Positions 28,792-63,954 of a DNA stretch of 64,000 bases are shown here, in pieces (positions within the stretch are counted from its first letter, which is position 1; each line of letters starts with the position of its first letter). The translations under genes and the position numbers were made by a program. Location: the NCBI GenBank assembly GCA_964016885.1, contig CAXHJY010001387.1:62001-126000 (forward strand), given 5' to 3'. A model generated the notes under the pieces. It was given only the letters and a program-made list of their open reading frames with translations, was not told where the DNA came from and did no database searches. Source of the stretch: Eledone cirrhosa. Taxonomy: Eukaryota.

Positions 28792-29384
28792 GTGGCTGCC
28801 AACTCGTTTTCGAGTACGGCCACTACTTTATATCCATGTAGGAGAACCTCTAGCGATGCGCTGAACGAGTGTGACTTTTTAGTCCAGCCAGCGACTTGAA
28901 AACTCTGGTACAAACACTACACTTGTGACAATTATTGACACAGTGCTGGGCCCATGGTACCATGTGACGACAAGTGCAGAGAGATCTCCAGATATAAAGC
29001 AATGCCTGTGCCGTGAAGCTTTTATAGTGAGCAAAGGCATTGCACAAAGCCAGTCCCACTCTCTTAACCAAGATGATATTTACCAAAAAGAAGAACAAGT
29101 CAACATCATTGGACACCATTAGGGTTGCAGGTGTTATATCAGAGTTTTCCTTCTCCTAGAATTCTGCCTTGACAAAGGCTAAGGGGTGATCTCTCCCGGT
29201 GATTTTGGATGGCCATTGACTCTTAAGAGCTCCTTTGCCCTTTGACAGGTTTTGTTTTTAGTCCTGCAGGATGTCCAAAGTCACCCTCCTCACCAAGAAA
29301 CATTGTTGGGGTTGCCAGTTTAGTCGCCAACGAACCGACCATGAGACAGGTTGTACTGGGATACATGTTACCAGTAGCACCAAC
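28792..29384 (-). mobile_element. ~590-bp non-autonomous RTE derivative (5' UTR joined to 3' end)
   Basis: Near-identical to 62239-62824. Middle part is homologous to the RTE 5' UTR at 38046-38325. 3' part encodes CSVCTRVFKSLAGLKSH, like the RTE C-terminal zinc finger. (TATG)n tail. Confidence 0.75.
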
Positions 29385-30152: not shown

Positions 30153-30366
30153 CATTTCTACTATAGGCACAAGGCATGACATTTAGGGTTTAGGGTCCCG
30201 TCGATTACATCGATCCCAGTTCACAACTGGTACTTAATTTATCGACCCCAAAAGGGTGAAAGGCAAAGTTGAGATCGGCGGAATTTGAACTCGGAACGTA
30301 AAAACGGAAGAAGTACCGCTAAGCATTTCGCCAGATGTTCTAACGATTCCACCAGCTCACCGCCTT
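30153..30366 (-). mobile_element. tRNA-derived SINE with 18-bp target-site duplication
   Basis: B box GAGTTCAAATTCC on the minus strand. ATTTTCACCAGTTATAAT at 30135-30152 and 30367-30384. Confidence 0.85.
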
Positions 30367-31530: not shown

Positions 31531-31651
31531 GGAGGTGAGTTTTATTGTAGCACAATAAAGCAATGCAAATATCGGATAAGTAGCACTCTACAGTTTGTAG
31601 AACTGGAGTATAAATAATATAAGATCAAAAGATGGTTAAAAGAGTTCTAAG

Positions 31652-31722
31652 TGTTTTATTATGCGCATTTCAAAAACAAATATCATCATGAGATGATATC
31701 TGCATTTTCATCAGATAAAATA
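31652..31722 (-). ncRNA. Type I hammerhead ribozyme
   Basis: ttttat-CTGATGA-long stem II (gatatcatc/gatgatatt)-GAAA-tgcgca-TA-ataaaa. Confidence 0.85.
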
Positions 31723-33638: not shown

Positions 33639-33780
33639 CTTAGAACTCTTTTAACCATCTTTTGATCTTATATATATATATATATATGTGTGTGTAAAAG
33701 GTAAACAGAAATAACAACACAATCAATACTGTATATGGAAGATATATATTAGGTTAACGCTTGATATAGCAGGAAGAGGG

Positions 33781-33816
33781 TCTTAACGTTTCGGACGCTA
33801 GTCCTTCATCAGAAGA
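33781..33816 (-). ncRNA. Minimal type I hammerhead ribozyme
   Basis: tctt-CTGATGA-a-ggac(tagc)gtcc-GAAA-cg-TT-aaga on the minus strand. Confidence 0.75.
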
Positions 33817-34104
33817 AAGAATGAGAAATAAAATAGATTGAGGGGACGGGCGGGGTGGAATTGGAAAAAATGTCTTTAGATAAAAATAACAGGTCCATAT
33901 ATATACATGCATATTAAAATGTAATACGATGTAGTCTCCATATTTATTCACGACTCACACTCTGTAGATACTGTCGTACAATCAATGTTAGGCCGTCAGC
34001 AACGTAGTAATATGCAAATGAGTAATCAGTTTCAATCAAATTTGCATATTAATGAGTAGCTTTCGTTCGTTCTCGGACCAAATTATATAAGCCCTGTGGG
34101 CTCT

Positions 34105-35067: not shown

Positions 35068-35871
35068 TCATCCCTTGAATCGCAAGAATGTTTTGCAAAT
35101 TTTGAAGGTGCCAGCTATCGCAGTCATTTGTAGACTATGAATTAGGGAGCTGCGCTCTTTTTCCGCAAATCCAAGTTCAGTTATACATTGGTCCAAGCGG
35201 GTTCGTATATAACCCGTAGCACCAATAATGATGGGTATGAAGCTAAAGGTGTATCTTGGATACTGGATTTGTAAACTCCTCATCAATGGTCTGTAGATGT
35301 CCTCCTTCTCCTCTATTTTTCTGACAACGTTTACATCAAGTGGGCAGCTGATCTCCACAACAGAACACGTTTTCAATGTGAGGTCCCAAACAACAATATC
35401 AGGCCTGTTGTGCTTTAATTTGGTGGCAGGTTTTATTTTCAGGTTCCACCAGTATTCCTTAGTGCCATCTGTCTCAATATATTCTTCCTCGTTTGTTGTT
35501 AATTTTGTTTTCCGAAGTGCGTTCCAGATGGTTCTAGCTATCCCATCGTGTCTCATGGGGAGGTAGTAGCGAGATGACATTCTTTCGCAGCTGGCAACAA
35601 TGTGGCTTACATCTTCGATCTTTGTTTTACATAGCCTACATTTATTGTCAGCTGATGGCCTTCCTCTTTTGTGCAGCAGATATTTGGTAGGGAGTTCTTG
35701 TTCCTGTATTGCATAGAGATATCCCTCAAGGTGTGATGTCATAAACTTGTCGGAACTCCATGGCAGGCTTATTGAGTGGTTTATCCCCTCTATGGTCTGT
35801 GTTTTACGTCTCAAGTATCCATGCACAACTTTTTCTGTAAATTGGTCAATTGTTTTATCTTGTTTGAACAT
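35068..35871 (-). pseudogene. 3' fragment of an RLE-endonuclease non-LTR retrotransposon (R4/Dong-like)
   Basis: CRLC...HIVASC zinc knuckle, RHD, RPDIVVWD, VEISCP and IPIIIGATG motifs. 5'-truncated, with an A-rich then (CATA)n 3' flank. Confidence 0.88.
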
Positions 35872-36473
35872 TGATTAGGATCTTCCGATTTCTCTGGGTG
35901 AGAGATTTATATCAGGCTTTATTCCATATCTCTCCTCCAGATCAGTCGCTATTCTAATGATATTTTTTTTTCATGTTCATAAACCTGGGCAAGATGGTTG
36001 CCAAACTTTTTCCTCTGTTGAAGGTGTTGCTTCAGTGTTACTATGCATGTATGTATGTATGTATGTATGTATGTATGTATGTATGTATGTATGTATGTAT
36101 GTATGTATGTATGTATGTTTGTCAAACTCTCTACTCTCTGTTGAATGTGTATATATATATATATGTATGTATATGTGTGTATATACATCACTCAGTCAAA
36201 CGACCAGATTTCAACCCCAACATCTACAACAACAACAACACCGGCACTAATGTTTACAGCAACACCAGCTTCAGAATGAACTGAAATGAATAATTACAAC
36301 AACAACAACAGCGGCATCAAAAGAAAAGGAAGGGGAAAAAAATCAAAATAACAAAACACACACACACACGCACACAACACAACAACAACATCAACTGCCA
36401 TCACCACCACTACCGCCGCCGCCATCACCATCACCAGCGACCGGGCCTTAAGAAAACAACTTTAATAATAATT

Positions 36474-36615
36474 TTTCTGCTTTTGGCACGGATCCAGCGA
36501 CTGGACCAGTTCATCACTGGTACTCTCATTTGTTGACTCCGTGGGGATGAAAGGCAAGGTTGACCTCGGCGGGATTTGAGCTCAGAGCGTGGAGGGCCGT
36601 GACTCTATGCTGTAA
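36474..36615 (-). mobile_element. tRNA-derived SINE, degenerate and truncated
   Basis: gatgaaaggcaaggttgacctcggcgggatttgagctc is shared with the other SINE copies. Confidence 0.75.
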
Positions 36616-36698
36616 AACAATTATAATAATACTGGACTGTAGTACGATCGGCTTCAACTATACAAACTCTTGAAAGTCAACAGTTGACATAATGACGG

Positions 36699-39094: not shown

Positions 39095-42000
39095 GAGCCA
39101 AACAAGGCATTTAGTCTTGGCTGCTGGAACGTACGGACGCTGCTTGACAGGGATTCCTTGGGGCGTCCTGAACGAAGGACCGCTCTTGTTGCAAAGGAGC
39201 TTCGACGTTACGATCTTGACATCGTGGCTTTATCTGAGACGAGGCTAGCTGGAGGTGGTCATCTTACGGAATTTTGTGGAGAATATACATTCTTCTGGAA
39301 AGGAAGAGATGAAGGAACCAGAGAGAGGCTGGGGTAGGATTTGCTGTTAAGACTGCTTGTGAACAAATTAGAAGAATTCCCAGTAGGGATTAGTGAGCGT
39401 CTTATGTCCATGAGAGTTCCGCTGGACAAGGGAAAATATGCTACCCTGGTGAGTGTGTATGCTCCAACTATGAGTTCTGTCGATGAGGAAAAGGTGTCCT
39501 TTTACCATGCCTTGAAAGGTGTTTTAAGAAATATCCCTCAGGCAGACAAAGTCATCGTGCTTGGTGACTTTAATGCTAGAGTGGGTAGGGATTTTAACAC
39601 ATGGAATGTAATCGGAAGGCATGGGGTGGGAAAGTGTAACAGCAATGGTATGCTCCTGCTCCAGATGTGTGAGGAGCTGGATCTGTGTGTTACCAACACC
39701 ATGTTCCAACAAAAGAACAAATTCAAGACCACATGGATGCATCCTGCATCTAAGGAATGGCATCTTTTGGACTACGTCCTAGTCAGGATGCGTGACAGAC
39801 AGGATGTGCAGTGTGTTCGTGTTCTTCGTGGAGCTGAGTGCTGGACGGACCACCGCCTGGTACGCGCAAAAGTGAAACTAATCACTAAACGTAAAATCCG
39901 GGCTCCTGGTCTTGCCCTGCCCAAAAGATTGAATGCTGCTCGTCTTAAGGATAAAAATGTGAAGAGGACATTGGAAGAAGAGATGCAGGCTGCAGATCTT
40001 GGTGAGGATTGGCCGACCCTTAAAAAGTCGGTTTATGATGTAGGCAGGCGTGTTCTGGGATTGGCGCAGAGGAGACATCAGGACTGGTTTGATGAGAATG
40101 ATGTACATATAGAAGACTTGTTGGGTGATAAGAGGCGTGCTCTGTCACGCTACTTGACGGCAAAACCACAGGAGAGGAATACGTTGCATGAGGAACTCAG
40201 GGATGTAAAATCATGTGTTAGGCGGAGTCTTTCTCAGATGAAGGATCAGTGGTGGAGTGAGAAGGCTGGTGAGATACAAACTGCGTCTGATTCCAATAAC
40301 ACAAAGCTGTTGTACAGTCTCTTGCGTGAGGTTTATGGACCGTCTTCTTCTTTGGTGACACCGCTTCGCAGCAAGGATGGCAAAGAACTTCTTCGTGACT
40401 CACAAGGAATTCTACGAAGGTGGCGAGAGCACTTTGGTGATCTTTTGAATCAGCCGTCTGTCGTCAGTGAAGATTTCCTCAATCTCATTCCAGAAAGTCC
40501 TGTGAAAGTAGCTCTCGCAGAACCTCCGACGCTTGTGGAGGTTGCAGTGGCTATTTCGAAGCTGAACAGTGGAAGATCTCCAGGTATGGATGGCATACAT
40601 GCTGAGCTCCTACAATATGGTGGTGAGAGACTCCTGCAACATCTTCACTCTTTGTTTGGCAGGATATGGGCTAATGAATCCGTACCTGAGGACTGGAGAG
40701 ATGCAGTAATGGTGGTCTTGTACAAGGGAAAGGGTAACAGGAACGATTGTGGGAACTACAGAGGTATATCATTGCTTTCTGTCGTAGGGAAAGTTTTATG
40801 TAGGGTGCTTCTGGACCGTCTGCTGACACACATTGCAGATTGTGTTCTTCCTGAAAGTCAATCTGGTTTTCGTGCTGGACGCGGCACTACTGATATGATT
40901 TTCTCAGCTAGACAGCTCCAGGAGAAGTGCATGGAACAAGGCTTGGATCTGTATCAGGTTTTTGTTGATCTGACAAAAGCTTTCGATACTGTTAACAGAG
41001 ATGCATTATGGAAGGTTCTCCAGAAACTTGGTTGCCCTGATAAGTTCCTTGCTTTAGTTAGGTCTTTCCATGACGACATGAAGGCTTGGGTTAATGTCGG
41101 GGGTAACATGTCGGAGCCTATCTCAGTAAAAAATGGAGTGAAACAGGGGGATATTCCAGCACCGACCCTCTTTGCCATATACTTTGCAATGGTTTTCTGT
41201 ATTGCATTCAGGAATTGCGAGCATGGTGTTTACATCCGATATCGAACCTCAGGCAGCATATTTAACATCAGGCGCTTTGCTGCGAAGACAAAAGTATTTA
41301 CATCAATCATAAGAGACCTCTTGTATGCAGATGATTGCGATCTTGTAGCGCACACAGAGAGTGATATGCAACACATTTTGAATGCATTTTCTGACGCTTG
41401 CACTGCCCTAGGTCTGACTGTCAGTCTCAAGAAAACCGTCGTCATGTACCAACCTGCCCCTGGTAAGCAGTACACTGAACCAAACATCTATGTGTATGGC
41501 AAACGACTTGGAGTGGTTGATCAGTTTGTCTACCTGGGAAGCACTGTCAATCGATACAGCAACCGTGACAGTGAAATCTCACTTAGGATTAGGAAAGCAA
41601 GTGATGCTTTCGGAAAGCTAGAAAGGCGACTCTGGGGTTGGCGAGACATATGCAGGAGGACAAAGGTAAAGGTGTACAGGGCATGTGTGCTCTCTTGTCT
41701 TCTTTATGCCTGCAAGACCTGGGTCACATATCGATACCACCTTAAGCAATTGGAGCGTTTCCATCAGATGTGTCTCAGACGGATCCATGGCGTTCACTGG
41801 AGGGACCACATCAGTGATGTCGAGATTTTGGAAAGCTCTATGTGTGACAGTATAGAAGCTCTTGTGCTTAAGCAACGACTCCGTTGGAGTGGTCACCTTG
41901 CCAGGATGAAGGATTCTAGAATACCAAAACAACTCTTTTATGGAGAGTTGGTTAAAGGAAAACGACCGCCACATAAACCAAAAAAGAGGTATAAGGATTC

Positions 42001-42505
42001 CTTGAAAGCCTCTCTGAAAGACGCTAACATCTCTGCTGATACATGGGAGAATATTGCTGCTGATCGTAATAAATGGAGAAAGACTGTATATGAGGGAAAC
42101 GTTGCCTTTGAGGCATCTTGAATCGCATACGAGAAAGTAAAGCGGGATGTGAGGAAGGGCATTGCTGTTGCACTTCCAGACAGCGAGGGTCCTCCTATGG
42201 TGCTGACATACAGCGTATGTGCGAGACTCTGCCTAAGCAAAGCTGGACTCGAAAGTCATCTTCGCAGTCATAAAGTAAGACCAGTGGTTGACTACCAGGC
42301 TGCTGTTAGAGATGCTACTCATCATGCTTGCCAAACATGTGGTAGAGAATGTAAATCAGCAGGAGGGCTCAAGCGACATGCAAAAGTACATGAACTCCAA
42401 CCACAGCCGACTATTCCCAGTGAATGTTTTGGTTGCCGACTCTGTGCAAGACATTTTATATCATTAGCTGGGCTAAAAAGCCACATTCGATCGCAGCGCT
42501 GTTAG
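39095..42505 (+). pseudogene. RTE-clade LINE ORF (AP endonuclease + reverse transcriptase + C-terminal C2H2 fingers), disrupted
   Basis: WNVRTL, ALSETR, LGDFNARVG, WTDHRLV, NYRGISLLS, QSGFR, DLTKAFD, GVKQG and LYADD motifs. Two compensating indels near 39330-39352 put GVGFAVK in another frame. An in-frame TGA at 42119-42121 separates the zinc-finger tail. Confidence 0.93.
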
Positions 42506-45395: not shown

Positions 45396-45552
45396 AGGTG
45401 GCGAATTGGCAGAGTCGTTAGAAGGTCAGATAGAATGTTTTATGGCATTCGTTCTGACTCTCTGCTCTCGGAGTTCAAATCCCGCTGAGGTCAATTTTGC
45501 TTTTCAGCCTTTCGAGGTCGATAAAAAAAGTACCAGTCTAGTACTGGGGTGG
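45396..45552 (+). mobile_element. tRNA-derived SINE, 3'-truncated
   Basis: TGGCAGAGTCG A box, GAGTTCAAATCCC B box, and a gtcgataaa..gtaccag core. Confidence 0.8.
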
Positions 45553-47149: not shown

Positions 47150-47263
47150 ACAACCGTACCTACGTTTGGGATTTTACATATCTCTAAACCCACTCTGCAT
47201 CTCTCCAAGTATTGAGTACTCCCAAGATTAGTGGCCTCCCCAGTCTCAGCATCGCAGACTCGA
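47150..47263 (+). mobile_element. Isolated PLE tail fragment
   Basis: acccactct...ccaagtattgagtact matches the reverse complement of the 27497-27528 tail motif. Microsatellite flanks. Confidence 0.5.
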
Positions 47264-47353: not shown

Positions 47354-47381
47354 CACACACATATATATAATAATCATAATA

Positions 47382-47571
47382 ATTGTTTCTACTTTAGGTA
47401 CAAGGCCAGCAATTACCAGTACATAACAGGTACTTTATTTTATCGACCCCGTAAGGATGAAAGGCAAAGTTAACCTCGGCGGGATTTGAACTCATACCAT
47501 AAAGGTCCGTAACTCTTTGCTGCAAAGCATGGCGTCTGACCCTCTACCGATACTGCCAATCCACCGCCCTC
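47382..47571 (-). mobile_element. tRNA-derived SINE
   Basis: Homologous to the reverse complement of 28081-28270. Confidence 0.85.
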
Positions 47572-47574
47572 ATA

Positions 47575-47625
<51 letters not shown>

Positions 47626-47867: not shown

Positions 47868-50800
47868 TTACAGACACATACTCAGAGAAGGCCCATTCAT
47901 TCGGGCCATACTTGCTTCTCTCACCCATCTTTCAACAAAATGCTGGGAAGAGAGCACTTCCCTCTCTACCCTGATTTTCCTTTTCAAATGAAATTTGAAA
48001 AAGTTAATCAGGGCATCACCGAAGAAGTAAGTGCTCGTCTTCAGCCCTTTCAAACGTGTCCACCATACTATCTCTTTCGCCATGGCCACCAGACAGATAA
48101 AAACTGCCTGCCCTTCCAGGCTAAAGGAAGGGGGCGGGGCAATCCTCACGATGGACTCAGCTGATAGCTGGATCCGTCCTACACGTGACAGCAGGTGTTC
48201 GACATAAACCCACAAGTCAGCAATGCTCGGACACTGGACGAGTGCGTGCAGGACGGTTTCGTCGCCCTGCGCGCATCTCGGACATGCCCGGCTGACGGCA
48301 CCTCCATGCCTGTAGAGTTTATCCCGAACTGGCAAAGCTCCTCGGTAGCACTGCCAGGCCAGGGATTTCTGGAAGTTGTCCATAGGCCCCGGCCCGAAAG
48401 TCCTTCCGAAGAGATTGGCTAGTTGATTTTCGTCGACGCCTAGAGTTTCTCCAAGTACGTCGTCGCTCTTCCCCTCCACTAATCCCCTATAGAACGCCAA
48501 GGTGGAGTTTCCACCGATCACATTGCCCGATTGGTCGAGGGCTGTGAGCGCCTGAAGACATTCCAGTCTCCAAGCGCTCCCTCTCGGTCTTCGCTTGACC
48601 CAGGACTGCAGCTCCGTCAAGGAGACGAGCTGGGGAAAAACGTGTCTTGCAAACGGCGACCACACCTGATCACCGTCGAGGAAGAGGTGGAGATGTCGTA
48701 GCCTGAGCGCGTGTCTGCGCATCATCAGCCACGGCATGCCCAGCCCTCCACGTAGCGGGTGTTGACAGCAGATGGACCGCCTGACCATCGGAGCGCGTCC
48801 CTTCCACAAGGAGCGAAAGAGCAAACGCTCCAGCGCAGTCAGGCGGGGCTTAGGACAAGGTACGACGGTCAGGCGGTAGTAGATGACGGATGCGATGTAC
48901 GCATTCGCCACCTCCGCTCGACCTTTCAGGGATAGCTTCCTCTCGGCCCATTTCTGGGTGAGAGAAGCCACCCTGCTCGTCACCTCGTCCCAGTTTTTGT
49001 CCGTCTGGAGGTCTGGACCGAACCAGACCCCCAGCAATTTAACCGGTCCGTTCGTCCAGCGCCCGACGACGCTGTTGGACGGCATGGACCTGCCTCTCCA
49101 GGTGCCGAGCTGCAGGGCCACTGACTTTTCCTGGTTGATCATTGCTCCTGTCACCGCTTCGTATTCTCTTAGTGTAGTGCCGATCGCCTCGATGTGTTTG
49201 GCGTTCGACACCACTACGGTGACATCGTCGGCATATGCTGACACGGATCTTCCGCATCCTAGTTCGCGCGGGACCCCCCTCAACGTCTCCAGTTTGTGCA
49301 GTAATGGCTCGAGAGTCAATACGTACAATAGGGACGAGAGGGGACATCCTTGGCGGACCGAGCGCATGATGTTGAACGGTTCCGAAAGGTGACCGTTCAC
49401 TCTCACTACAGAGCAGATGTCGCTGTGCATGGCAGCGATCCAGCCTCTGAAGACGGGCCCAAAGCCAGCCGCCCTCAGGACTGCCGTTAGGTAACGATGG
49501 TCGACCCTATCGAAGGCTTTCGACTGATCTAAATTGATCAAAGACCCACCCGTGCCAGGTTCCCTAGCTACCCTCTCTACGATGTATCGCATGAGGTGGA
49601 GGTTGTCGTGGATGGATCTGTCGGGAATGGCGCATGTCTGTGCCTCTCCCACCAGACCACCAACGACAAGCGCCAACCTCTTTGCTAGCACCTTGACCAA
49701 AATCTTGAACTCTGTGTTTAGCAGAGTTATGGGCCTAAAATTATCTATGTTATCCCCCTTGTTCGGATCCTTTCTCAGCAGCGCCACCGCTCCTCGGCTC
49801 ACAGAGCTGGGAATTCTCCCGTTCTGTTGCCAGTTGCAGTAGACGTCCGCCAAGAGGCCTCCGAACAAGTTTGGCATTTGTACGTAAAGTTCATAGGGCA
49901 GACCATCCAAACCAGGCGATTTACCCCTTGTGCAACTAGTCATTGCATCCCGTACTTCAGCGGTTGTTATCGGCTTTTCGCAACACTCCGCCTCAGTGGT
50001 CGAGAGCCGCGGCAGTCCGTCGAGGTAGACACTAAAGTCCATCCCTCGATCCGGCCCGCCACTGCCCCCGAACAGTTGAGCGAAGTGTCGCTGAAAAGCT
50101 TCACACATTTGCCCGGGATCGAGTAGCATGCGCCCGTCGTGGTCCACCAAAGACCGGATCGTGGTTTTGTTGCCACGACGCGCCTCCGCCACTCGGGCCC
50201 ATTGAACGGCTTTCGTCCCCTCGTGTCTGAGAGCACGCACCCTAGCTCTGACAACGCAGCCTTCGTGCTTTGCATTGAAGAATTGGTCAAGGGCCAATTT
50301 CGCCGCAAGTACGTCGGTCGCGATGCCTTTGCTAAGCGCCTCATCTAATTTTCTAACTAATTCTCCCTCTGCTCTATTTTTCTCTATTGCTAAAGTCTTA
50401 CTAAACCTAATGGACTCTATTCTAATTGCTCTTTTCAGAGCAAACCACAACTTGTTGTTGACGATGGCCCCCGTCAACGCCCGCTTAACTAGTTCGCTAA
50501 TCCGGTCTCTGTAGGCCTTGCGCGCTGGTAAGGACGCGTTTAGCTTCCAGTAGCCGGGTCCTTGTCTATGAAGCCTATCTAAGTCAAGCACACAGATCAC
50601 GAATTTGTGGTCCGTGTAGCTGACTATCTTGAATTGTGGATAGCCTATGCTAGACCTATCTATTTCCCTACAAAATACTCTATCTAGATATGATCTGGAT
50701 GACCCTATGCGATTTGTCCAAGTCCACATTGGTACATTCGGGAAATCCATTCGGTACCTGTCAGACAGTTCAAAACGTCTGAGCAGGTTGGTGAGACTCT

Positions 50801-51287
50801 TGCACCCTCCTTCCCTATCCACTAATCCCACACAATCCCAGCGTGCATCTAAGATCCCGTTCCAGTCGCCCACTAACGCTAAAGAGCGGGACGTTCCAAG
50901 AAAGGTCTCCAGACGCCGGAAGAAATCAGGCCGCCCTGCTCCTGTCGGGGCATAGACGGCCACTAACCTGAAAGCTTGCCCGTCTCCGCTGGTCACGTCC
51001 AGCACCACCAACTTACCTTCTGGGTCCAGGAAGATGGCCCGTATGGCAAGATCCAAACCTCTCCGAAAAAGCACAGCAACTCCTCCCCCCGATCCCGGAC
51101 GGCTGGGAGATGCGTACACATCGTAGCCGCCGAAGATCGGTGCGAAAGCCTGTGCTTCGGAGATTCTGGTCTCGCTGATGGCCACTACATCTATGTTTAG
51201 TGACCTGAGGTCGTTGAGCAGGTGGCCCTGCTTCCATGACGACCCCAAGCCACGCGCTTTTATGCTGCCTATTCTGAGTGAGGTCAT
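47868..51287 (-). CDS. Tx1/L1 ORF2: AP endonuclease + reverse transcriptase + C-terminal Cys/His motif, 1139 aa
   Basis: ISETR, VYAP, GDWN, YLDR, TDHK, GYWKLN, KSPGLDG, FRPITLLN, KAFDRV, RQGCPLS, AYADD and CPRC...HALVQC motifs. Uninterrupted frame. Confidence 0.95.
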   Translation of the reverse strand: MTSLRIGSIKARGLGSSWKQGHLLNDLRSLNIDVVAISETRISEAQAFAPIFGGYDVYASPSRPGSGGGVAVLFRRGLDLAIRAIFLDPEGKLVVLDVTSGDGQAFRLVAVYAPTGAGRPDFFRRLETFLGTSRSLALVGDWNGILDARWDCVGLVDREGGCKSLTNLLRRFELSDRYRMDFPNVPMWTWTNRIGSSRSYLDRVFCREIDRSSIGYPQFKIVSYTDHKFVICVLDLDRLHRQGPGYWKLNASLPARKAYRDRISELVKRALTGAIVNNKLWFALKRAIRIESIRFSKTLAIEKNRAEGELVRKLDEALSKGIATDVLAAKLALDQFFNAKHEGCVVRARVRALRHEGTKAVQWARVAEARRGNKTTIRSLVDHDGRMLLDPGQMCEAFQRHFAQLFGGSGGPDRGMDFSVYLDGLPRLSTTEAECCEKPITTAEVRDAMTSCTRGKSPGLDGLPYELYVQMPNLFGGLLADVYCNWQQNGRIPSSVSRGAVALLRKDPNKGDNIDNFRPITLLNTEFKILVKVLAKRLALVVGGLVGEAQTCAIPDRSIHDNLHLMRYIVERVAREPGTGGSLINLDQSKAFDRVDHRYLTAVLRAAGFGPVFRGWIAAMHSDICSVVRVNGHLSEPFNIMRSVRQGCPLSSLLYVLTLEPLLHKLETLRGVPRELGCGRSVSAYADDVTVVVSNAKHIEAIGTTLREYEAVTGAMINQEKSVALQLGTWRGRSMPSNSVVGRWTNGPVKLLGVWFGPDLQTDKNWDEVTSRVASLTQKWAERKLSLKGRAEVANAYIASVIYYRLTVVPCPKPRLTALERLLFRSLWKGRAPMVRRSICCQHPLRGGLGMPWLMMRRHALRLRHLHLFLDGDQVWSPFARHVFPQLVSLTELQSWVKRRPRGSAWRLECLQALTALDQSGNVIGGNSTLAFYRGLVEGKSDDVLGETLGVDENQLANLFGRTFGPGPMDNFQKSLAWQCYRGALPVRDKLYRHGGAVSRACPRCAQGDETVLHALVQCPSIADLWVYVEHLLSRVGRIQLSAESIVRIAPPPSFSLEGQAVFICLVAMAKEIVWWTRLKGLKTSTYFFGDALINFFKFHLKRKIRVEREVLSSQHFVERWVREASMARMNGPSLSMCL

Positions 51288-51321
51288 GTTGAAAAGGAGT
51301 GGAAAAGATGGGAAAGACCAC

Positions 51322-53279
51322 TTACCTTACTTCTCGTAGGGGAAGGACGGCTTTTCCATCCTTTTCACTGCTTGTGGCCTCCTCAGGAAGGATGTCCTTA
51401 TAAATCCTCCTGGAGAGTGCTTGTCGGAAGTCTCCGATGTCTTTGGGGAATTTTTGTTTTAGTGTCATGTACGTTTTCTGTGTGATGCGAGTGATTTGTA
51501 TGTGTGGAGGTGGTGTGAATTTTGGGGTTGTTGTGTAGTCTTTTTCTGTGATGTTGGTGTTGTGTTGGATGTAGTGTAATAATTGCTTGTTGTTCAAATT
51601 TAATGCTGTGTAGTGTGTATCGTTTTGGTTGTTTTGTTTTGTTTGCGTTTGTTGTGGGTTTGTTTCTGTTTCGCATTTTGGTGACTTTTGTGGTGTAGGT
51701 GATGGTGGTGCTGGGGATAATGATGGTGATGGTGTTGGTGTTTGGGTTGATGGGGTTGGTGATGCTGGTGTGGATGGTGGCATATCTGTCCTAACTTTTT
51801 TGTTTCTTAGTTTATTTGTTTCCCTCTGTATTTTGTTTTTGGAGGGGGAAGGAAGAGAATTTTTTTCTTTTTTGGTTTCTTTTTTTTTTCCGGATATCGT
51901 TTCCCACTCCTCGTCGTCACAATCTGTCTCCAGTTGTGATAGGCCGGGGAGTGGAAAATCCTCCACAGCCGTTAGTTTTGGTTGTGGTGTGGTGGATGGT
52001 GTAGGCGCTGGTGCTAGTTCTGAAGCGTTGGGTGGTGGTGGTGTTGGTTTTGCTGGTGGTGGTAGTGGTGTTGGTTTTGCTACTGTTGCTGGGGTTGTTG
52101 CTGTTATAGTTGCTTCTGTTGTTGCTGCTACAGTTGTTGCTGCCATCTCTGCTACTGGTGGTGTTGATGGTTGTGTCACTGGGGTGGGTAGGAGAGGTGG
52201 CCTCAACCTTTTAGCCTGAGGGCAGAAAGCCCTTAGGTGGGTTCCTTCACCACAAACGACACACCTAGGTCTTCTGCCCTCGACAATTACCGTGAGGTGG
52301 CTGCCGTCAGTGAGGTCTATTACCTCTGGGATCTCCTCAATGCTTTTTTGGTCCGCTTGGATCAGGAGCTCCATCCCAGATCCGGACCAGTTTTCCTGCT
52401 TTTCTTTTGCTACTGCTATTATTTTCGTGTTGACTTCGATGCCGGCGAGGACAACCGCTATTAGCCAGGGAATTTCGATGGCCGGTGGAACGTGGGTCAC
52501 CCTGATCTTTACGAGTCTCTGGCCACAATAGCTTGGGACGAGTGTGAGGTCGTCACTTTTTAATGGGGCCATGGAGTGTTCTCTAGCCTCCTCTGGTGTT
52601 TCAAAGAACACATCCACGGTTCCATACTTTTGCCCACGTCTGATGTGGGTTTTTCTTGCCCACACATGTCCCGTTCCACTCGGCGCGATTTTACATTTAT
52701 TGTTCTATACGACACGGTGCACAGGCGCCGATGCTCCATTTTATTAGGTGGGGGGGTGAGGCTGACCCTGTACCCATCTTTCTTTACCATTTGTTTGGCA
52801 TTTTCTAAATCTTCTTGAGTTACCGTGAACGCTTCGAATTGTTTTGCTACGATGGCGAAACTGAGGGTCGGTTTTATAATGTCATTGTTGTTGTTGTTGC
52901 TATCGTTAATATTAATTTTATTTTCAGTTGTGGTGGTGGTGACGTCAGTCGTCTTTGGTGGGGAAGAGTCCATTTTGCTTGATTTCATTTCCACGTCACG
53001 AGTTAATTTATTTTTTTCTTCTTTTGTTTCTGTTGTCGCGGTGGTGGTGGTGGTGGTGGTGGTTGTCGCGGTGGTGGTGGTGGTGGAGGGTTTAACACCT
53101 GCAGTCATTGGTAATGGCGGGAAATGAATGTCTGCCTGAGACAAATTTAAAATATTGCTACTGCTTATATTTTTTTTTGTGTTGGCAAACGTAGTAACAT
53201 TTACAATGGTGGTGTCGGTGTGAGGTGTTATTTTGTGAGGAAGGCTTTCAGCTGCTTCGTGCAGAGGGGAATTAGCCAT
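51322..53279 (-). pseudogene. Tx1/L1 ORF1 (gag-like, CCHC knuckle), split by one frameshift near 52670
   Basis: Overlapping ORFs 53279-52560 and 52665-51322. CVVCGEGTHLRAFC knuckle and Pro/Thr-rich linker, immediately upstream of ORF2. Confidence 0.8.
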
Positions 53280-53487
53280 TTTTTTTCAAAGAAATTTTTG
53301 GATAATATAAAAGTTAAAATTTTGGGCACAAGGCCCCAATCTTTTTGGGTGTCCTTTTCGGAAAACAATGTATGTGTACTTATAAACAGTTTACAATAAA
53401 ATTTTCCATAAATGGCAATTTTTAAACAAACGGAAATAACAAACCTTTGCGGAGCTCACGATAATACGATTTCCTACGTAGGTCGCC

Positions 53488-53534
<47 letters not shown>

Positions 53535-53535
<1 letters not shown>

Positions 53536-53712
53536 TGTTTCTACGTTTGGCACAAGGCCAGCAATTATCCAGTGCATTACTGGTACTTTATTTTATCGAC
53601 CCCGTAAGGATGAAAGGCAAAGTTAACCTAGGTGGGATTTGAACTCAGAAAGGCAAGGGCCGTAACTCTATGCGTCAAAGCATGGCGTCCGACCCTCTAC
53701 CGATACTGCCAA
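53535..53712 (-). mobile_element. tRNA-derived SINE
   Basis: Closely similar to 47382-47571. Confidence 0.85.
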
Positions 53713-53720
53713 TAATAATA

Positions 53721-54030
53721 AAAGGACGATTTGTTATGTCTTCATTACGTTTATTGACTGGTGACGCGCGTTTCGCTATTGATCAACTGTGGTAATGACA
53801 CAGCAGAGGTCCGACGAGCTTTTGATTCCAGAGTCGGGCCAGATCGAACCTTGAGCTGATCAATAGGGAAACGCGCGTCACCAACCAATAAACGTAATGA
53901 AGACATAACAAATCGTCCTTATATTATTATATTTATACTCTGTCTAGCCCTACACCTCGTTACAGACGTGAATCTAAACATCGGGTGCTCACCTGGGTGA
54001 ACATACGGTAACTTCACGTTACACTCTTTG
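53721..54030 (+). mobile_element. Fold-back PLE terminus: inverted arms plus ~110-nt tail, with a hammerhead-like motif at 53808-53882
   Basis: Inverted repeat 53722-53785 / 53857-53920. ggt-CCGACGA-gct...atagg-GAAA-CGCGCG-TC-acc (U4C variant). Tail starts TTATACTCTG. Confidence 0.7.
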
Positions 54031-55207: not shown

Positions 55208-55208
<1 letters not shown>

Positions 55209-55399
55209 GTTATTCCGGGTTGAATCGGAGGTAACCACAGTAAGTAAGGTACTCGATACATTGCAGAGTATAAAAGTTTTAATATAGATGAGATTCTACA
55301 GGACTAGAACTGTTTCATTCTTTAGAAATCATCAGGAATCTCCTGATGATTTCTAAAGAATGAAACAGTTCTAGTCCTGTAGAATCTCATCTATATTAA

Positions 55400-55403
<4 letters not shown>
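55208..55403. mobile_element. Fold-back PLE terminus: 67-nt tail plus perfect 63-bp-arm palindrome in (TA)n
   Basis: Arms 55275-55337 / 55341-55403 with a 3-nt loop. Each arm carries CTGATGA-ttc.taaa.gaat-GAAA. Confidence 0.8.
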
Positions 55404-55471
<68 letters not shown>

Positions 55472-55679
55472 AGATAAATCTACCAAAATATACGGTAGTG
55501 TCCAATCCGTATGAAGAACTCAATGTAATCCAAATATCACGAAAAGAGAAAATGTATTCAAAGTTTTTTCGATGAAAAACACAGGAAAACAGAGTCAAGA
55601 TAAATTAATAAAAATAATGAATAAAAACAAACGGTCAAATTTTCCTACTCCACAACCAAAAATATACAACAAAATATAA

Positions 55680-56282
55680 GTGCCTACAATGCATATAAAT
55701 GTGATAAAAAAAAACATGAATATACCACCAACACATCAAACTAACCATAATACTAAAATAAACCACAGCAAACCACCATCTCATTCACATACAACAAGTC
55801 GAGAAAATTCCACACCTAATTTGATTAACTCCCCTGATATAACATTCACGAAAGGTTGTAACTGTAGAAACAAAGCAAATTGCCCATTAAAAGGAAATTG
55901 CCTTATTAATAACATAGTATATAAATGTAAAATTAGCACTAAGGACTCAACTTATTCATATATAGGAGCTACTTCTAACCAATTTAAAGTAAGATTTAAT
56001 ACCCACAAACACAGTTTTAAAAATGCCGCATTAGCTAATACAACATCTTTAGCTGAAATAATGAATAATTATAGAAAAAAGAATATCGATTATAACCTGA
56101 CCTGGAGTGTGCTCAAAAGGGCCACCCCTTATCAAAATAATAGATATGAATGTAGATTATGTTCCCAGGAACTTTTTGAAATAATGAAATCTAAGGATAT
56201 CCTATTAAATAAGCGACAAGAATTAATTATATCGTGCAATCATAGAATTAGAAAAACTTTCAAAAGTTATAAACCTAATTAA
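55680..56282 (+). pseudogene. Penelope-like GIY-YIG endonuclease, C-terminal fragment of a 5'-truncated element (~55480-57178)
   Basis: CNCRNKANCPLKGNC, IVY...YIGAT..FKVR..H and CRLC..E...LLNKRQE..SCNH motifs. Followed by an AT-rich 3' UTR and a hammerhead. Confidence 0.9.
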
Positions 56283-56989
56283 AATACACTTATATTTTAC
56301 AAATTATTATAATTAATTTTTTTAAAATTAGTTAACCTATAATTAATATTCTACTACTAAGAACTGCATAATTTTATTTCCCTTTTACAGCTATCTTTTC
56401 CTAAAATTTATACTATTTTAATTTCCTGTTCTGAATCTAAATTCCTTGTAATCTATATAAGTTTGTTATTTCTCACAAATACATTTATCCCCCCCCCCCC
56501 AAAAAAAAAATTGTTTTCCTTCGTTTTTAACAACATTCTTTAATAACATCTAACTCTTATTTATCATATCTATATGAATTAATATAAATTTATCCCTATA
56601 AATATACCTATCAATTAAATTAATTTAATTTCTTTTTATAGATCTAAATTCCTTATGTTTTAAATAAGATTGATATTTTTCACTAACACATTTATCGTAA
56701 AATTTTATTCTCCTTAGATTTTAACATTAGAATTATTCTTTAATAACATCAAATTTTCGTGTACCTTTCACCGGATTGACCTATTTTCATCCCCAAAGTT
56801 ATCTTTTCATTCAAAATACTCTTTCCATTCAAAACTGAAGTCTGCATTCCTCTACCCCTAAATTAAATTTCTACTACTACTATTCTATCAACTTGACCAC
56901 TTACTACTTTTTTATTGGTCAATTCAAAACCTGTTCCCAAACAGACCTATTATATTAAATCTTTGTTGGTTCTCTTCAATAAACAGATA

Positions 56990-57127
56990 TCATTATTTCT
57001 GAAGACAGCATATATATGTGTAGGTATGTATATTCCCTCTGATAGTTTGTAACATTTTTACATAGATCTATATGATATACATACCAACACACACATATAT
57101 ATCCTAGAAACGATCGTAAAATGATGA
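56990..57127 (+). ncRNA. Type I hammerhead ribozyme with ~100-nt stem II
   Basis: tcattattt-CTGAAGA-[atatatatgtgt/acacatatatat, ggtatgtatat/atatacatacc]-GAAA-CGATCG-TA-aaatgatga. Confidence 0.8.
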
Positions 57128-57175
57128 ATTTTTTAATATAAGGAACTGTTTCTTTGTTTTTATTCATTATTTTTA

Positions 57176-57233
<58 letters not shown>

Positions 57234-57263: not shown

Positions 57264-57771
<508 letters not shown>

Positions 57772-58687: not shown

Positions 58688-60969
58688 ACGAAGGAAATGT
58701 GGTAAGGAACCAGGTGGACCATAACGCACCAAAGTACTCAATACTTAGGGTAGTAGAGTGGGTAATAGGAACGAGTAGGACCCCGACGGCTGAGCTCAAG
58801 CCGTTTCGACGGCTAATTCTGGACTAAATGAAAATTTTTATCCTGGTATATGAATAGCCGAGCTTCTCAGGGGGTAATTCCATATATGGTAAAAGTGATT
58901 GTCACAAGTATTGGTCAAAAGTTTGTTGTTGAGACACATAATTCTATCATGGCAATTTGTGGAAGGAAGGGGTAGTTGAACCTGCCAGTAGAAGAAAGAG
59001 GGATAGGGGGTGGAGGAAACCCAGTCGTGCGTTGATAGTGCCAACTACAGCAGGGCAGGAGGTGAAGGAAGTATACTAGGGAGGGGGAGGGGGGAAATCG
59101 AAACAATAAGTAAAACAATATGGGGTAAATATATAGAAAAATACCGAGAACGTTAAAAAAAACAATTAAATATAAAGAAAACAACAAAAAAACAGCAATT
59201 TCTGGTTACTATAACCTAAGGACAGCTATCAAGTCTCTCACTGGTACTGCTAGACAAAAGAAAGGTTTACTAGGTGGGACGGAATTATAATGAGACCCTT
59301 TTAAGAAGTATTAGTAATCAACCGAGTATATCTTACGGTGACGGGTCAACAAGTGCGGGGCCAAAATACTAAAGAAACTACCACGAAATAATAACTCAGA
59401 GTCCCGAGACGAATACGAAATAATGGTTTCTACCCTAGGCACAAGGCCAGCAACCACCCAGTGCAAAAAATAAACTAATACGAAATAATAATTCAGAATC
59501 CCGAAAAGGAATACTAATACTATCTCTAAGGGTGCCGCTACGACACAAAAATTCTAGTGCAAACTACATAAATGCTCGTACGAAGCCAACTCTTACACGG
59601 GAGGACGCCGTCCGTGCAATTTATGCTCGGAGGAAACTTTACAAATGCTGATTTCGACGGACCAACTCCTAAACAAGAAAGATGAACTGGTAACTGCATG
59701 CAAACACAGATTGCGTAGGACTTACCTCGCCCTCAAACCCCATAATGACCCGGGGGGGAGGGTAGACAAGGGCTATAACACCCCACTTGCCGACTTTGTA
59801 ATGGGTAACCCCTGCTTGCAAAGGTAGACGTAAGATCTTCTTTTATATCTTTTTATCGCTTCCTCTATATTTCCTTCTTCCCCCCATCCCTCCCTAGTCC
59901 GTCCACCCCAGTCTTCTTTCTTTGTCGTCGTCCTTTTCACCTTCTCGCCCACCTGAGGTAGCCCCTCGGTCCTTTGTAGCCTCAGTACCCCCACCCCCTT
60001 CCCCTATTCTATGATAGAATTGGCCGACTCCGCTTTTTATAGCAGATGTGATAGACCCCGGATACTTGCCTTCTTATCCGATGGCTGCCCTTTTCCGTGC
60101 TTTCTACATTTCTTAGTGGTATCTTTGCTTTAATTTCTCGTATATCAGTATTTATTTTTATTTTTTTTTTGGGGGGGGGGGGGGGGATTCTGAATTAATT
60201 TTCCGTATCAAATTTTTCATATACTTCGTACGAGCATTTATGTAGTTTGCACTAGAATTTTTGTATCGTAGCGGCACCCTTAGAGATAGTATTAGTATTC
60301 TTTTTCGGGATTCTGAATTATTATTTCGTATTAGTCTCGGGACTGAATTATTATTTCGTGGTAGTTTCTTTAGTATTTTGGCCCCCCACTTGTTGACCCG
60401 TCACCGTAAGATATACTCGGTTGATTACTAATACCTCTTAAAAGGGTCTCATTATAATTCCGTCCCACCTAGTAAACCTTTCTTTAATCTAGCAGTACCA
60501 GGGAGAGACTTGATAGCTGTCCTTAGGTTATAGTAACCTCAAATTGTTTTGTTTTTTTTGTTTTTTTTATATTTAATTGTTTTTTAACATTCTCGGTATT
60601 TTTCTATATATTTACCCCATATTGTTTTTCTTATTGTTTCGACTTCCTCCCCCCCCTCCCTAGTATACTTCCTTCACCTCCTGCCCTGCTGTAGTTGGCA
60701 CTATCAACACACGACTGGGTTTCCTCCACCCCCTATCCCTCTTTCTTCTACTGGCAGGTTCAGCTACCCCTTCCTTCAACAAATTGCCATGATAGAATTA
60801 CGTGTCTCAACAACAAACTTTTGACCAATACTTGTGACAATCACTTTTACCATATATAGAATTACCCCCTGAGAAGCTCGGCTATTCATATACCAGGATA
60901 AAAATGTTCATTTAGTCCAGAATTAGCCGTCGAAACGGCTTGAGCTCAGCAGTCGGGGTCCTACTCGTT

Positions 60970-61857: not shown

Positions 61858-62037
61858 TCCGTATGTGGTTGACGGCTGAAAGAATAGTACTCAATACCGA
61901 AGTAGGGTTTCATATTAATTTTATTAAGGCAAAATAGTGAGTCTTGTTACTCTGGAGTTTCGCCAGTTTATCTCAGGGTCATCAGGCATGAAACTTCAGA
62001 GTAAAACAAGATTCACTATTCAGCCTCAATAAAAGGA
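61858..62037 (-). mobile_element. Fold-back PLE terminus with tail and a hammerhead core (61943-61985, minus strand)
   Basis: Imperfect inverted repeat 61919-61961 / 61990-62033. CTGATGA...GAAA-ctc.ca.gag-TA core. Tail motif AGTACTCAATAC. Confidence 0.65.
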
Positions 62038-62238: not shown

Positions 62239-62824
62239 GTTGGTGCTACTGGTAACATGTATCCCAGTACAACCTGTCTCATGGTCGGGTCGTTGGCGAC
62301 TAAACTGGCAACCCCACCAAGGTTTCTTGGTGAAGAGGGTGACTTTGGACATCCTGCAGGACTAAAAACAAAACCTGTCAAAGAGCAAAGGAGCTCTTAA
62401 GAGTCAAAAATCACCGGGAGAGATGACCCCTTAGCCTTTGTCAAGGCAGAATTCTAGGAGAAGGAAAACTCTGATATAACACCTGCAACCCTGATGGTAT
62501 CCAATGATGTTGACTTGTTCTTCTTTTTGGTAAATATCATCTTGGTTAAGCGAGTGGGACTGGCTTTGTGCAGTGCCTTTGCTCACTATAAAAGCTTCAC
62601 GACACAGGCTTTGCTTTATATCTGGAGATCTCTCTGCACTTGTCATCACATGGTACCATGGGCCCAGCACTATGTATCAATGATTGTCACAAGTGTAGTG
62701 TTTGTACCAGAGTTTTAAAGTCGCTGGCTGGACTAAAAAGTCACACTCGTTCAGCGCATCGGTAGGGGCTCTCCTACATGGATATAAAGTAGTGGCCGTA
62801 CTCGAAAACGAGTTGGCAGCCACC
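62239..62824 (+). mobile_element. ~590-bp non-autonomous RTE derivative
   Basis: Near-identical to the reverse complement of 28792-29384. Confidence 0.78.
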
Positions 62825-63373: not shown

Positions 63374-63720
63374 AACACACACACACACACACATATCTAT
63401 TATCAAACACACGTATGTGTCTGCATATATTTGAGGTTCAATGCATGCATGTATACACGTATACTTATATTATATATGTGTGTGCACTGCATGCATGCGT
63501 TTGTTTGCATATATTCAAGGCCGCATGCATAGATGTATACGCGTGTACACACACACATACACGCGCACACACACCCATACATACACGCACACACACACAC
63601 ACATATATATATATGAAGTGTATGTATGTGTGTGTTTGTATATATTTGAGATGGTATGTATTACGGATACATGCACACACATATATATTTATGCATGTAT
63701 ATAATTATATATATAATATA

Positions 63721-63954
63721 TAAGAACAGAAGATGGTTAAAGGAGTTCCATGTATTTTATTATGCGCATTTCAAAAACAAACATCATCATGCAATAATAT
63801 TTGTGTTTTCATCAGATAAAACAGGAGGACATGATATGAAGGCTAAAAAGCACTTGTGGATAGTGCAGTTTTAAATCAACATACAAACTGTAGAGTGCTT
63901 CTTATCCGATATCTGCATTGCTTTATTGTACTACAATAAAACTCACCTCCTACA
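63721..63954. mobile_element. Short PLE terminus of the 31528 family: hammerhead arm (63753-63823, minus strand) joined to an inverted tail
   Basis: 63721-63881 matches 31620-31781. 63882-63954 matches the reverse complement of 31528-31598. (TA)n flanks. Confidence 0.78.

Follow-up and report, generated by a model that had tools for sequence, protein, structure and literature searches.

Bulged stem-loops at fixed offsets from the insertion ends of Hydra-type Penelope-like elements

Penelope-like elements (PLEs) of the Hydra type appear to carry two tandem predicted stem-loops between their hammerhead ribozyme and their start codon, each of which likely binds the reverse transcriptase (RT)-endonuclease and sets the start of reverse transcription a few bases 5' of itself; we give this reading a probability of about 0.65. 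The stem-loop is a real, clade-wide RNA element, and apparently an undescribed one. PLE reverse transcriptases are the sister group of telomerase, and their choice of two internal starts, together with an optional tail, has long been puzzling: the sole in vitro study, in the portion of the paper drawn on here, mapped the start sites and not their determinants (PMC11167929). A clade-wide duplicated element at a fixed distance from each insertion end offers a concrete and testable explanation of the tail. The motif is also an RNA-level marker for Hydra elements with no surviving ORF and, as that marker shows, Hydra elements are abundant in the genome studied here.

Motif copies in the Eledone cirrhosa window

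We analysed a 64-kb stretch of Eledone cirrhosa DNA (hereafter, the window) for which the original prediction had listed eight stretches with a conserved ACTC...GAGTRC motif. All eight are present, either exactly where they had been placed or a few bases off, and the proposed pairing of ACTC with GAGT is borne out at the window sites. A ninth copy, absent from that list, was reached through an endonuclease ORF and not through the motif. These nine copies fall into eight families, those at 27524 and 58759 belonging to one and the same. The string ATYGRGTRC occurs seven times in the window, compared with a mean of 0.97 (maximum 3) in 30 local shuffles; a microsatellite follows six of the seven at 41–46 nt, and the copy at 61895 at 28 nt. 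A structure descriptor returned 10 sites, against a mean of 0.48 (maximum 2) in 40 shuffles that preserved microsatellites, an enrichment that is partly circular because the descriptor was fitted to the window sites themselves; nine of the ten are PLE tails, and the tenth (62745, plus strand) is weak and unrelated. At every motif site except the truncated one at 47192 there is a pair of inverted arms, of which one is tailed and runs through the motif, while the other is tail-less and runs into (TA)n just before it. This is the layout of PLEs as set out in the sections of PMC8557442 and PMC3846280 used here. Arms of sufficient length also carry a type I hammerhead motif upstream of the motif copy.

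The site on which the original prediction centred (55249–55269, minus strand) is a first copy of the bulged stem-loop, composed of ACTC, TGC..GTA, a TC bulge, GAGT and AC. The tail of its family (55208–55274, minus), which contains a 3' hairpin, begins at the tail-less end, 5 nt ahead of the stem, and reaches (TA)n at the tailed end, 41 nt past the stem. Upstream of this tail is a minimal type I hammerhead (CTGATGA..GAAA..GTA; 55292–55340, minus), a weak match to the Rfam model Hammerhead_3 (E 3.3), the cleavage site of which is 27 nt ahead of the motif; the inverted tail-less arm of the insertion (55276–55402, plus) ends in (TA)n. The ninth copy (55516–55595, minus; ACTC, TGT..ACA, TT, GAGT, TC) has a 62-nt insert inside its loop and is separated from its tail end by 44–46 nt. 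Its inverted partner arm holds the C-terminal remnant of a Hydra-type GIY-YIG endonuclease (55680–56282, plus), followed on the same strand (56999–57180) by a hammerhead motif at 56999–57118 and by a tail-less end, near 57180, that falls 8 nt before the stem position.

The remaining copies vary in their stems and in what is left of their arms. The copy at 57456–57482 (minus) has a 6-bp upper stem and a tail that ends at 57409–57410; the tail-less arm of this family (57610–57700) ends 3 nt before the stem position. A GGGT variant at 53937–53988 (plus) contains a U-G pair in its lower stem, its tail ends at 54030, and the tail-less arm of its family stops 6 nt before the stem position. CAGTT/AACTG upper-stem strands and a TA bulge characterize the copy at 31583–31609 (minus; hammerhead 31660–31714, tail end 31528, end of the tail-less partner arm near 33670); a further tail of this family, truncated inside the stem loop, adjoins at 63883–63953 (plus) an inverted tail-less arm at 63708–63883. 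The family with two copies has a TACT/AGTA upper stem and a TT bulge at 27499–27524 (minus; tail end 27453, tail-less arm ending at about 27642), and recurs at 58734–58759 (minus; tail end 58688, tail-less partner arm ending at about 60974). The hammerhead of the latter copy (58785–58870, minus) is a variant whose first core box departs from the canonical form and whose stem II contains a long insert. At 47192–47219 (plus) the motif lies in a 5'-truncated tail that ends at 47262, the hammerhead and partner arm being gone. Finally, the copy at 61887–61908 (minus) combines a C(UUCG)G loop with a lower stem that contains a C-A mismatch; its hammerhead is at 61948–61985 and its tail end at 61859, and the tail-less arm of its family stops 3 nt before the stem position. 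In the interval 61948–62016 (minus), sequence nearly complementary to the 3' half of this hammerhead stands ahead of it, and a rod that blocks the ribozyme could form.

The element at 55470–57180 is, at the sequence level, a Hydra-clade PLE. Although the 55680 ORF matches Pfam GIY-YIG at a value short of the cut-off (E 0.012), its translation contains a CxCx5C linker, with CxxC and CxH around the conserved E/N and no CCHH; the available text of PMC8557442 defines the Hydra-clade endonuclease by this same combination. In addition, a canonical hammerhead motif is located in the terminal repeat and the target is (TA)n. This endonuclease has 4530 relatives, and the full-length ones carry an RT ahead of the endonuclease, with RWK/RWR and DKT motifs; the RT part is missing in the window. 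RWK and DKT also occur in the motif-bearing loci L430 and L546 from outside the window. The motif, hammerhead type, inverted arms and target suggest that the other seven window families belong to the Hydra clade too; a scan of 39 of the 274 window ORFs yielded no PLE ORF remnant besides 55680. The original prediction spoke of otherwise unrelated PLE families, which is correct for their sequences, but on present evidence they would all fall within a single clade.

The window holds other repeats. Positions 1–27250 are a 27-kb degenerate (CCCTAA)n array of telomere type (77% matches); it closes with a TA run, and a Hydra-type insertion lies about 200 nt beyond that end. A PLE end of another type (33690–33830, minus), which has a hammerhead but lacks the motif, abuts the arm at 33682 as a nested insertion in a microsatellite. 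Non-LTR retrotransposons are present as a 927-aa RT ORF after an endonuclease fragment (39338–42121, plus), a 1152-aa endonuclease-RT with upstream ORFs (47868–53285, minus) and a C-terminal zf-RVT fragment (35068–35874, minus). A 590-bp repeat pair in inverted orientation (28792–29382 and 62241–62823; 95% identical) gives a weak C2H2 zinc-finger match. There is also a dispersed SINE-like family (28062–28281, 30216–30296, 36463–36619, 45405–45522, 47367–47589 and 53519–53713), which may resemble a conserved SINE central domain, one with an ACTCA..TGAGTAC stem of its own. Similar strings occur in the metagenome matches L216, L218, L264, L273 and L287.

Fold and distribution of the stem-loop

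Our comparison set comprises 22 families with one copy each: the 8 of the window and 14 from animal DNA. The latter is DNA co-binned in public MAGs (G002, G003 and G004), in which Hydra elements were found with a peptide-based pattern; of 37 matches to this pattern in one scan, five were examined (one Hydra, four not) and three were on contigs already covered. In these MAG-derived families the motif reads GCTC...GAGC. When G002 was scanned with a pattern that ignores the upper stem, 112 matches resulted, versus 2 for the reversed control, and the bulge and upper stem are present at 19 of 27 distinct sites among the matches listed. Prokaryotic MAG records that contain animal DNA, seen as microsatellites or intact PLEs, are G001 (L112), G002 (L315), G003 (L318) and G004 (L546); G002 holds many Hydra and Neptune-type families, nested in each other's TA runs.

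The conserved fold is predicted to be a bulged stem-loop: an RCUC/GAGY lower stem with a 2-nt, U-first bulge and a variable upper stem, and then RC-U. Because the variable loop defeated alignment with MAFFT, we counted pairs from anchored positions. The lower stem is paired in 87 of 88 cells across the 22 families, its first (base) pair being A-T in all 8 window families and G-C in all 14 others. Our check of stem covariation by shuffle counts came out in favour of this fold: upper-stem pairs 1–3 are formed in 62 of 66 cells compared with 40.5 by shuffle (reached in 0 of 20,000). Kinship among the families inflates this significance, and the change between A-U and G-C at the stem base may have happened only once; one round of site selection, in addition, required at least one upper-stem pair. 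The window families alone form 24 of 24 of these pairs (reached in 74 of 20,000 shuffles), and sliding the partners by 1–2 bases returns pairing to the null. The bulge is TT in 13 families, TC in 6 and TA in 3; RC-T follows the lower stem in 20 of the 22. Among reads of the 57482 family (about 2000 per run), the multi-locus variants listed affect the loop or the second base of the bulge, or else mostly preserve a G-U pair; none of those listed falls in the lower stem. We rejected a strand swap with hammerhead stem III: the two stems do not change together.

Over 25 copies, G-U pairs outnumber A-C pairs 5 to 1, and for that reason the sense RNA strand is favoured. The same observation bears upon the idea that the motif is a DNA-level element recognised by the endonuclease. 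The endonuclease of D. virilis Penelope needed the tail for recognition (as cited in the relevant passage of PMC11167929) and the lower stem is conserved in sequence, both of which would suit a DNA site; nevertheless, the spacing of the two stem arms, which ranges from 8 to 68 nt, and the covariation of the upper stem with G-U pairs are properties that fit a single strand and not duplex DNA. We consider a DNA site highly improbable.

When folded in isolation, most copies adopt the bulged stem-loop. In longer context the lower-stem probability is 0.0–0.26 in seven of eight window copies, the stem is often not the minimum-energy fold, and the folding z is near 0 for three of five regions. Since the stem is often not the lowest-energy structure in context, it would need either a protein or co-transcriptional folding.

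The original prediction had raised a different structure, namely a GYA-TYGAG-TRC hairpin, with a pseudoknot formed between its loop and CTC. The GYA/TRC pairs do form in 20 of 24 cells of the eight window families, with 4–5 bp in several of them, and in context the pair probability of this hairpin is about 0.67 in the 27524 family. Over all 22 families, however, they are at chance level (41 of 66 cells, compared with 39.0 by shuffle; reached in 3444 of 20,000); the hairpin is broken in the 55595 copy and in the 14 G-C variant families from outside the window (21 of 42 cells). GYA pairs instead with the three bases directly after RCTC. Hence the GYA/TRC hairpin is a local alternative in some window families and not the conserved fold, and a pseudoknot built upon it is almost certainly not the functional structure.

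As to distribution, the published consensi of PMC8557442 (File S7, by eye, for the entries considered) themselves contain the motif: it is clean at the end of Hydra-2_Amil and Hydra-2_Ajap, Hydra-1_Crog bears one degenerate copy at the 3' end and another that begins 6 nt in from the 5' start, and Hydra-1_Obim, Hydra-1_Ajap and probably Hydra-1_Amil end tail-less. By these sequences the motif spans at least Cnidaria, Echinodermata and Arthropoda, plus the animal of the window. Scans of viral, GTDB and metagenome collections for the motif plus a microsatellite, with a pattern that assumed ACTC/GAGT and was blind to the G-C variant, gave chance-like matches only; in the metagenome matches, which serve as a null, a 3-bp upper stem occurs in 9 of 113, none of these 9 with a hammerhead. 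Peptide patterns gave no Hydra matches in the viral collection, the queries used on G001 gave no Hydra element, and single-protein locus and homolog searches gave no matches.

The motif is absent from the small sample of non-Hydra PLE ends checked: L441, a Neptune-type 5' junction (DKG, CCHH); L444, another tailed end; the hammerhead-bearing window end at 33812; and the PAc RNA in Fig. S1 of PMC11167929, where, in the stretch depicted, no RCUC/GAGY motif occurs. So far, then, the element appears confined to Hydra-type PLEs, and these ends speak against a general tail signal of all clades. Two look-alikes were set aside, a stem in the 3' UTR of Naiad_Mmer that is about 400 nt from the end, and a G002 tandem array with a similar string and no hammerhead. 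A repeat in G002 (L481:643, on G002:C448; four copies) reads GCTC..GAGCAC, with a one-base bulge, a TA run at a similar distance and no hammerhead upstream; it is possibly a related or parasitic element.

Insertion ends and a second copy before the ORF

Both forms are represented in 14 families, and in all 14 the tail-less ends (26 in total, measured from the last shared base) lie 3–8 nt 5' of the stem. The tail-less arm had been expected to end within some 15 nt of the motif; the positional link is stronger than claimed, with a distance of 3–8 nt and not about 15. Tailed ends are found 28–55 nt after the stem in 20 of 22 families, these being the ones with a TA run following. In one locus (L556) both arms bear tails. 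Reads of the 57482 family place the tailed end sharply at 57409, where 299 of 354 and 262 of 302 molecules terminate. Read ends also accumulate at 57528 (262 of 556 and 298 of 591), where they fit no stem copy, and the reads do not resolve the tail-less end. This second, large pile, some 40 nt upstream of that family's tail-less end, continues into AT-rich sequence on which the reads agree poorly; it may be a third end or else reflect a sister subfamily whose spacer differs.

A second copy of the motif is situated just before the ORF. Among seven Hydra N-termini found, three are 5'-truncated and four have an intact 5' region, and all four of the latter contain this copy (L413, L415, L430 and L546). 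The two copies are spaced by 41 nt in L413, 40 nt in L430 and 42 nt in L546, and the ATG comes 20, 23 and 26 nt, respectively, after copy 2; in L415 only the tail end and copy 2 remain. The tailed end is 4 nt before copy 2 in the family of L413, L321 and L435, and 5 nt before it in that of L415, L412 and L416; along with these two families, the distance is known from one published consensus, Hydra-1_Crog, which resumes with a degenerate copy 6 nt past its tail end (PMC8557442, in the entry used from File S7). The Hydra-1_Ajap entry of that file begins, by eye, with two motif copies 36 nt apart, and the 5' region of the Hydra-1_Obim consensus (PMC8557442, as printed there) has by eye no clear copy. 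Copy 2 is thus known from MAG-derived loci and published consensi; the window has no 5' junction to show it. Both insertion ends appear to follow one rule, that of lying a few bases 5' of a stem, and because they do, the tail would be one repeat unit. The link between motif and insertion end therefore extends beyond what had been predicted for one end, from the 14 of 14 families at copy 1 to both ends, and the fixed offsets at both support the proposal of a cis RNA element tied by position to insertion ends.

The location of copy 2 in three loci, 20–26 nt before the ATG, might also be taken to mean that the twin stems are a 5'-UTR signal for translation or packaging (e.g., cis binding of the newly made protein), with the insertion ends adjoining them because the bound protein is nearby. 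Such a function alone would leave unexplained the base-precise offsets at both copies in many families, and we think it very unlikely.

We instead hypothesize that each stem positions the RT for internal initiation. The endonuclease would cut both strands of the (TA)n target. One target 3'-OH would then prime just 5' of copy 2, so that copy 1 and the spacer are copied and a tailed arm results; the other 3'-OH would prime just 5' of copy 1, giving a tail-less arm. A match of 1–4 A/U bases with the target may aid priming. Each stem would act as an anchor behind the active site that fixes one start, and each target end would use one start. Both cDNAs would run toward the RNA 5' end and be joined head to head, yielding one tailed and one tail-less arm. 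Copy 2 would never be copied into a 3' end, and consequently only copy 1 would be visible in the window.

Identical fixed offsets are also predicted if the stems mark RNA ends, that is, if each stem has an RNA 3' end a few bases to its 5' side, made by a nuclease or an element protein that cuts or stops the RNA, and the RT starts at that end; RNA-seq reads do end at the Poseidon start sites (PMC11167929, in the results drawn on). Yet those same results include a product whose size in vitro was unchanged by longer RNA 3' ends, and a main template that was unprocessed RNA (PMC11167929), so we regard RNA ends as an unlikely explanation, if one to be taken seriously. Another scheme would make copy 2 the sole start, with the tail-less arm arising by fold-back or second-strand synthesis and copy 1 acting as a stop signal, either in the cDNA or in still-bound RNA, with synthesis halting shortly ahead of it. 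Every inverted pair in the window has one tailed and one tail-less arm, as this requires, fold-back self-priming has been proposed for inverted PLE structures (in the part of PMC3846280 used), and the antisense strands fold at least as stably. On the other hand, conserved shape and offset are alike in the two copies, as would follow most simply from a shared function, the direction of wobble favours sense RNA (5 to 1), and for Poseidon two starts were seen directly (PMC11167929, within the figures considered); a stop signal at copy 1 seems to us quite unlikely.

Within the reading that we prefer, in which each stem sets one start, the most speculative step is that two protomers of a dimer take one stem each; we would put its odds close to, and a little short of, even. 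Our wider proposal, that a dimeric RT-endonuclease with one tandem signal per active site primes both break ends at once, and that the same duplicated-signal logic operates in other PLE clades, is offered tentatively, and on balance we are inclined to doubt it. If it were true, the 25-nt stem would serve as a portable tag that tells an internally initiating RT, one related to telomerase, where to begin. With regard to other clades, the PAc initiation region RNA (PMC11167929 Fig. S1, by eye, for the region drawn) shows a loose GAAAG..ACAAC repeat at a spacing of 34–36 nt, as well as a stem bulged on its 3' side, and may hold a duplicated signal.

Relation to known elements

The original prediction did not recognise the motif as a described one, and neither Rfam nor the literature searched contradicts this. 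Across the whole window, Rfam 15 gave microsatellite-driven matches, none at the gathering score among 150 of the 181 matches listed, and for two motif regions it gave nothing near that score. Papers on PLEs and related retroelements (PMC11167929, PMC8557442, PMC3846280, PMC4209133, PMC4176376 and bioRxiv 10.64898/2026.07.22.740005) describe, in their openly accessible portions, no such element or duplicated signal; subscription papers and Repbase were outside this search. With respect to the hammerhead ribozyme, the motif is a separate element: it lacks a catalytic core, and changes in its stem do not follow those in hammerhead stem III.

The closest known system is the Hydra clade itself as described by Craig et al. 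2021 (PMC8557442, in the sections covered), with which our elements share the endonuclease signature, hammerhead, (TA)n targets, inverted arms and optional tail; the motif is moreover present in the Hydra consensi of that work. The text covered there describes a hammerhead and a tail of 30–40 bp, and no tail structure, and 'stem-loop' and 'hairpin' have 0 occurrences in the supplement as searched; the window tails are longer, at about 55–135 nt.

The 3' stem-loops of stringent LINEs (ZfL2 and UnaL2; PMC4176376 and PMC1636434, for the parts consulted) are bound by ORF2 near the RT start and combine a conserved stem with a variable loop; protein binding to the Hydra stems would be analogous. The LINE stem-loops are single and lie 5' of the start, at the RNA 3' end, and are hence copied (PMC4176376 and PMC1636434, same parts). 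The Hydra stems, in contrast, occur twice, both times in the 5' UTR and on the 3' side of an insertion end, so that the positions of the two kinds of stem differ.

The PAc PLE of the Poseidon clade offers the most direct comparison (all statements here being those of the accessible part of Frangieh et al. 2024, PMC11167929). Its protein cuts and extends both target strands, and reverse transcription begins internally at two sites, one at either boundary of the tail; template on the 3' side of the start region is needed, the RT starts inside an AC-rich loop, and neither site shows a strand preference. That account describes no duplicated signal and does not identify what determines the two sites. 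PAc is unlike Hydra in that it belongs to another clade, its starts are within a loop, and the RNA displayed has no RCUC/GAGY. The two systems would nonetheless be alike, on the Hydra side by reading the insertions, in having two starts that bound the tail, extension of both strands, an AT-rich target and a need for template 3' of the start.
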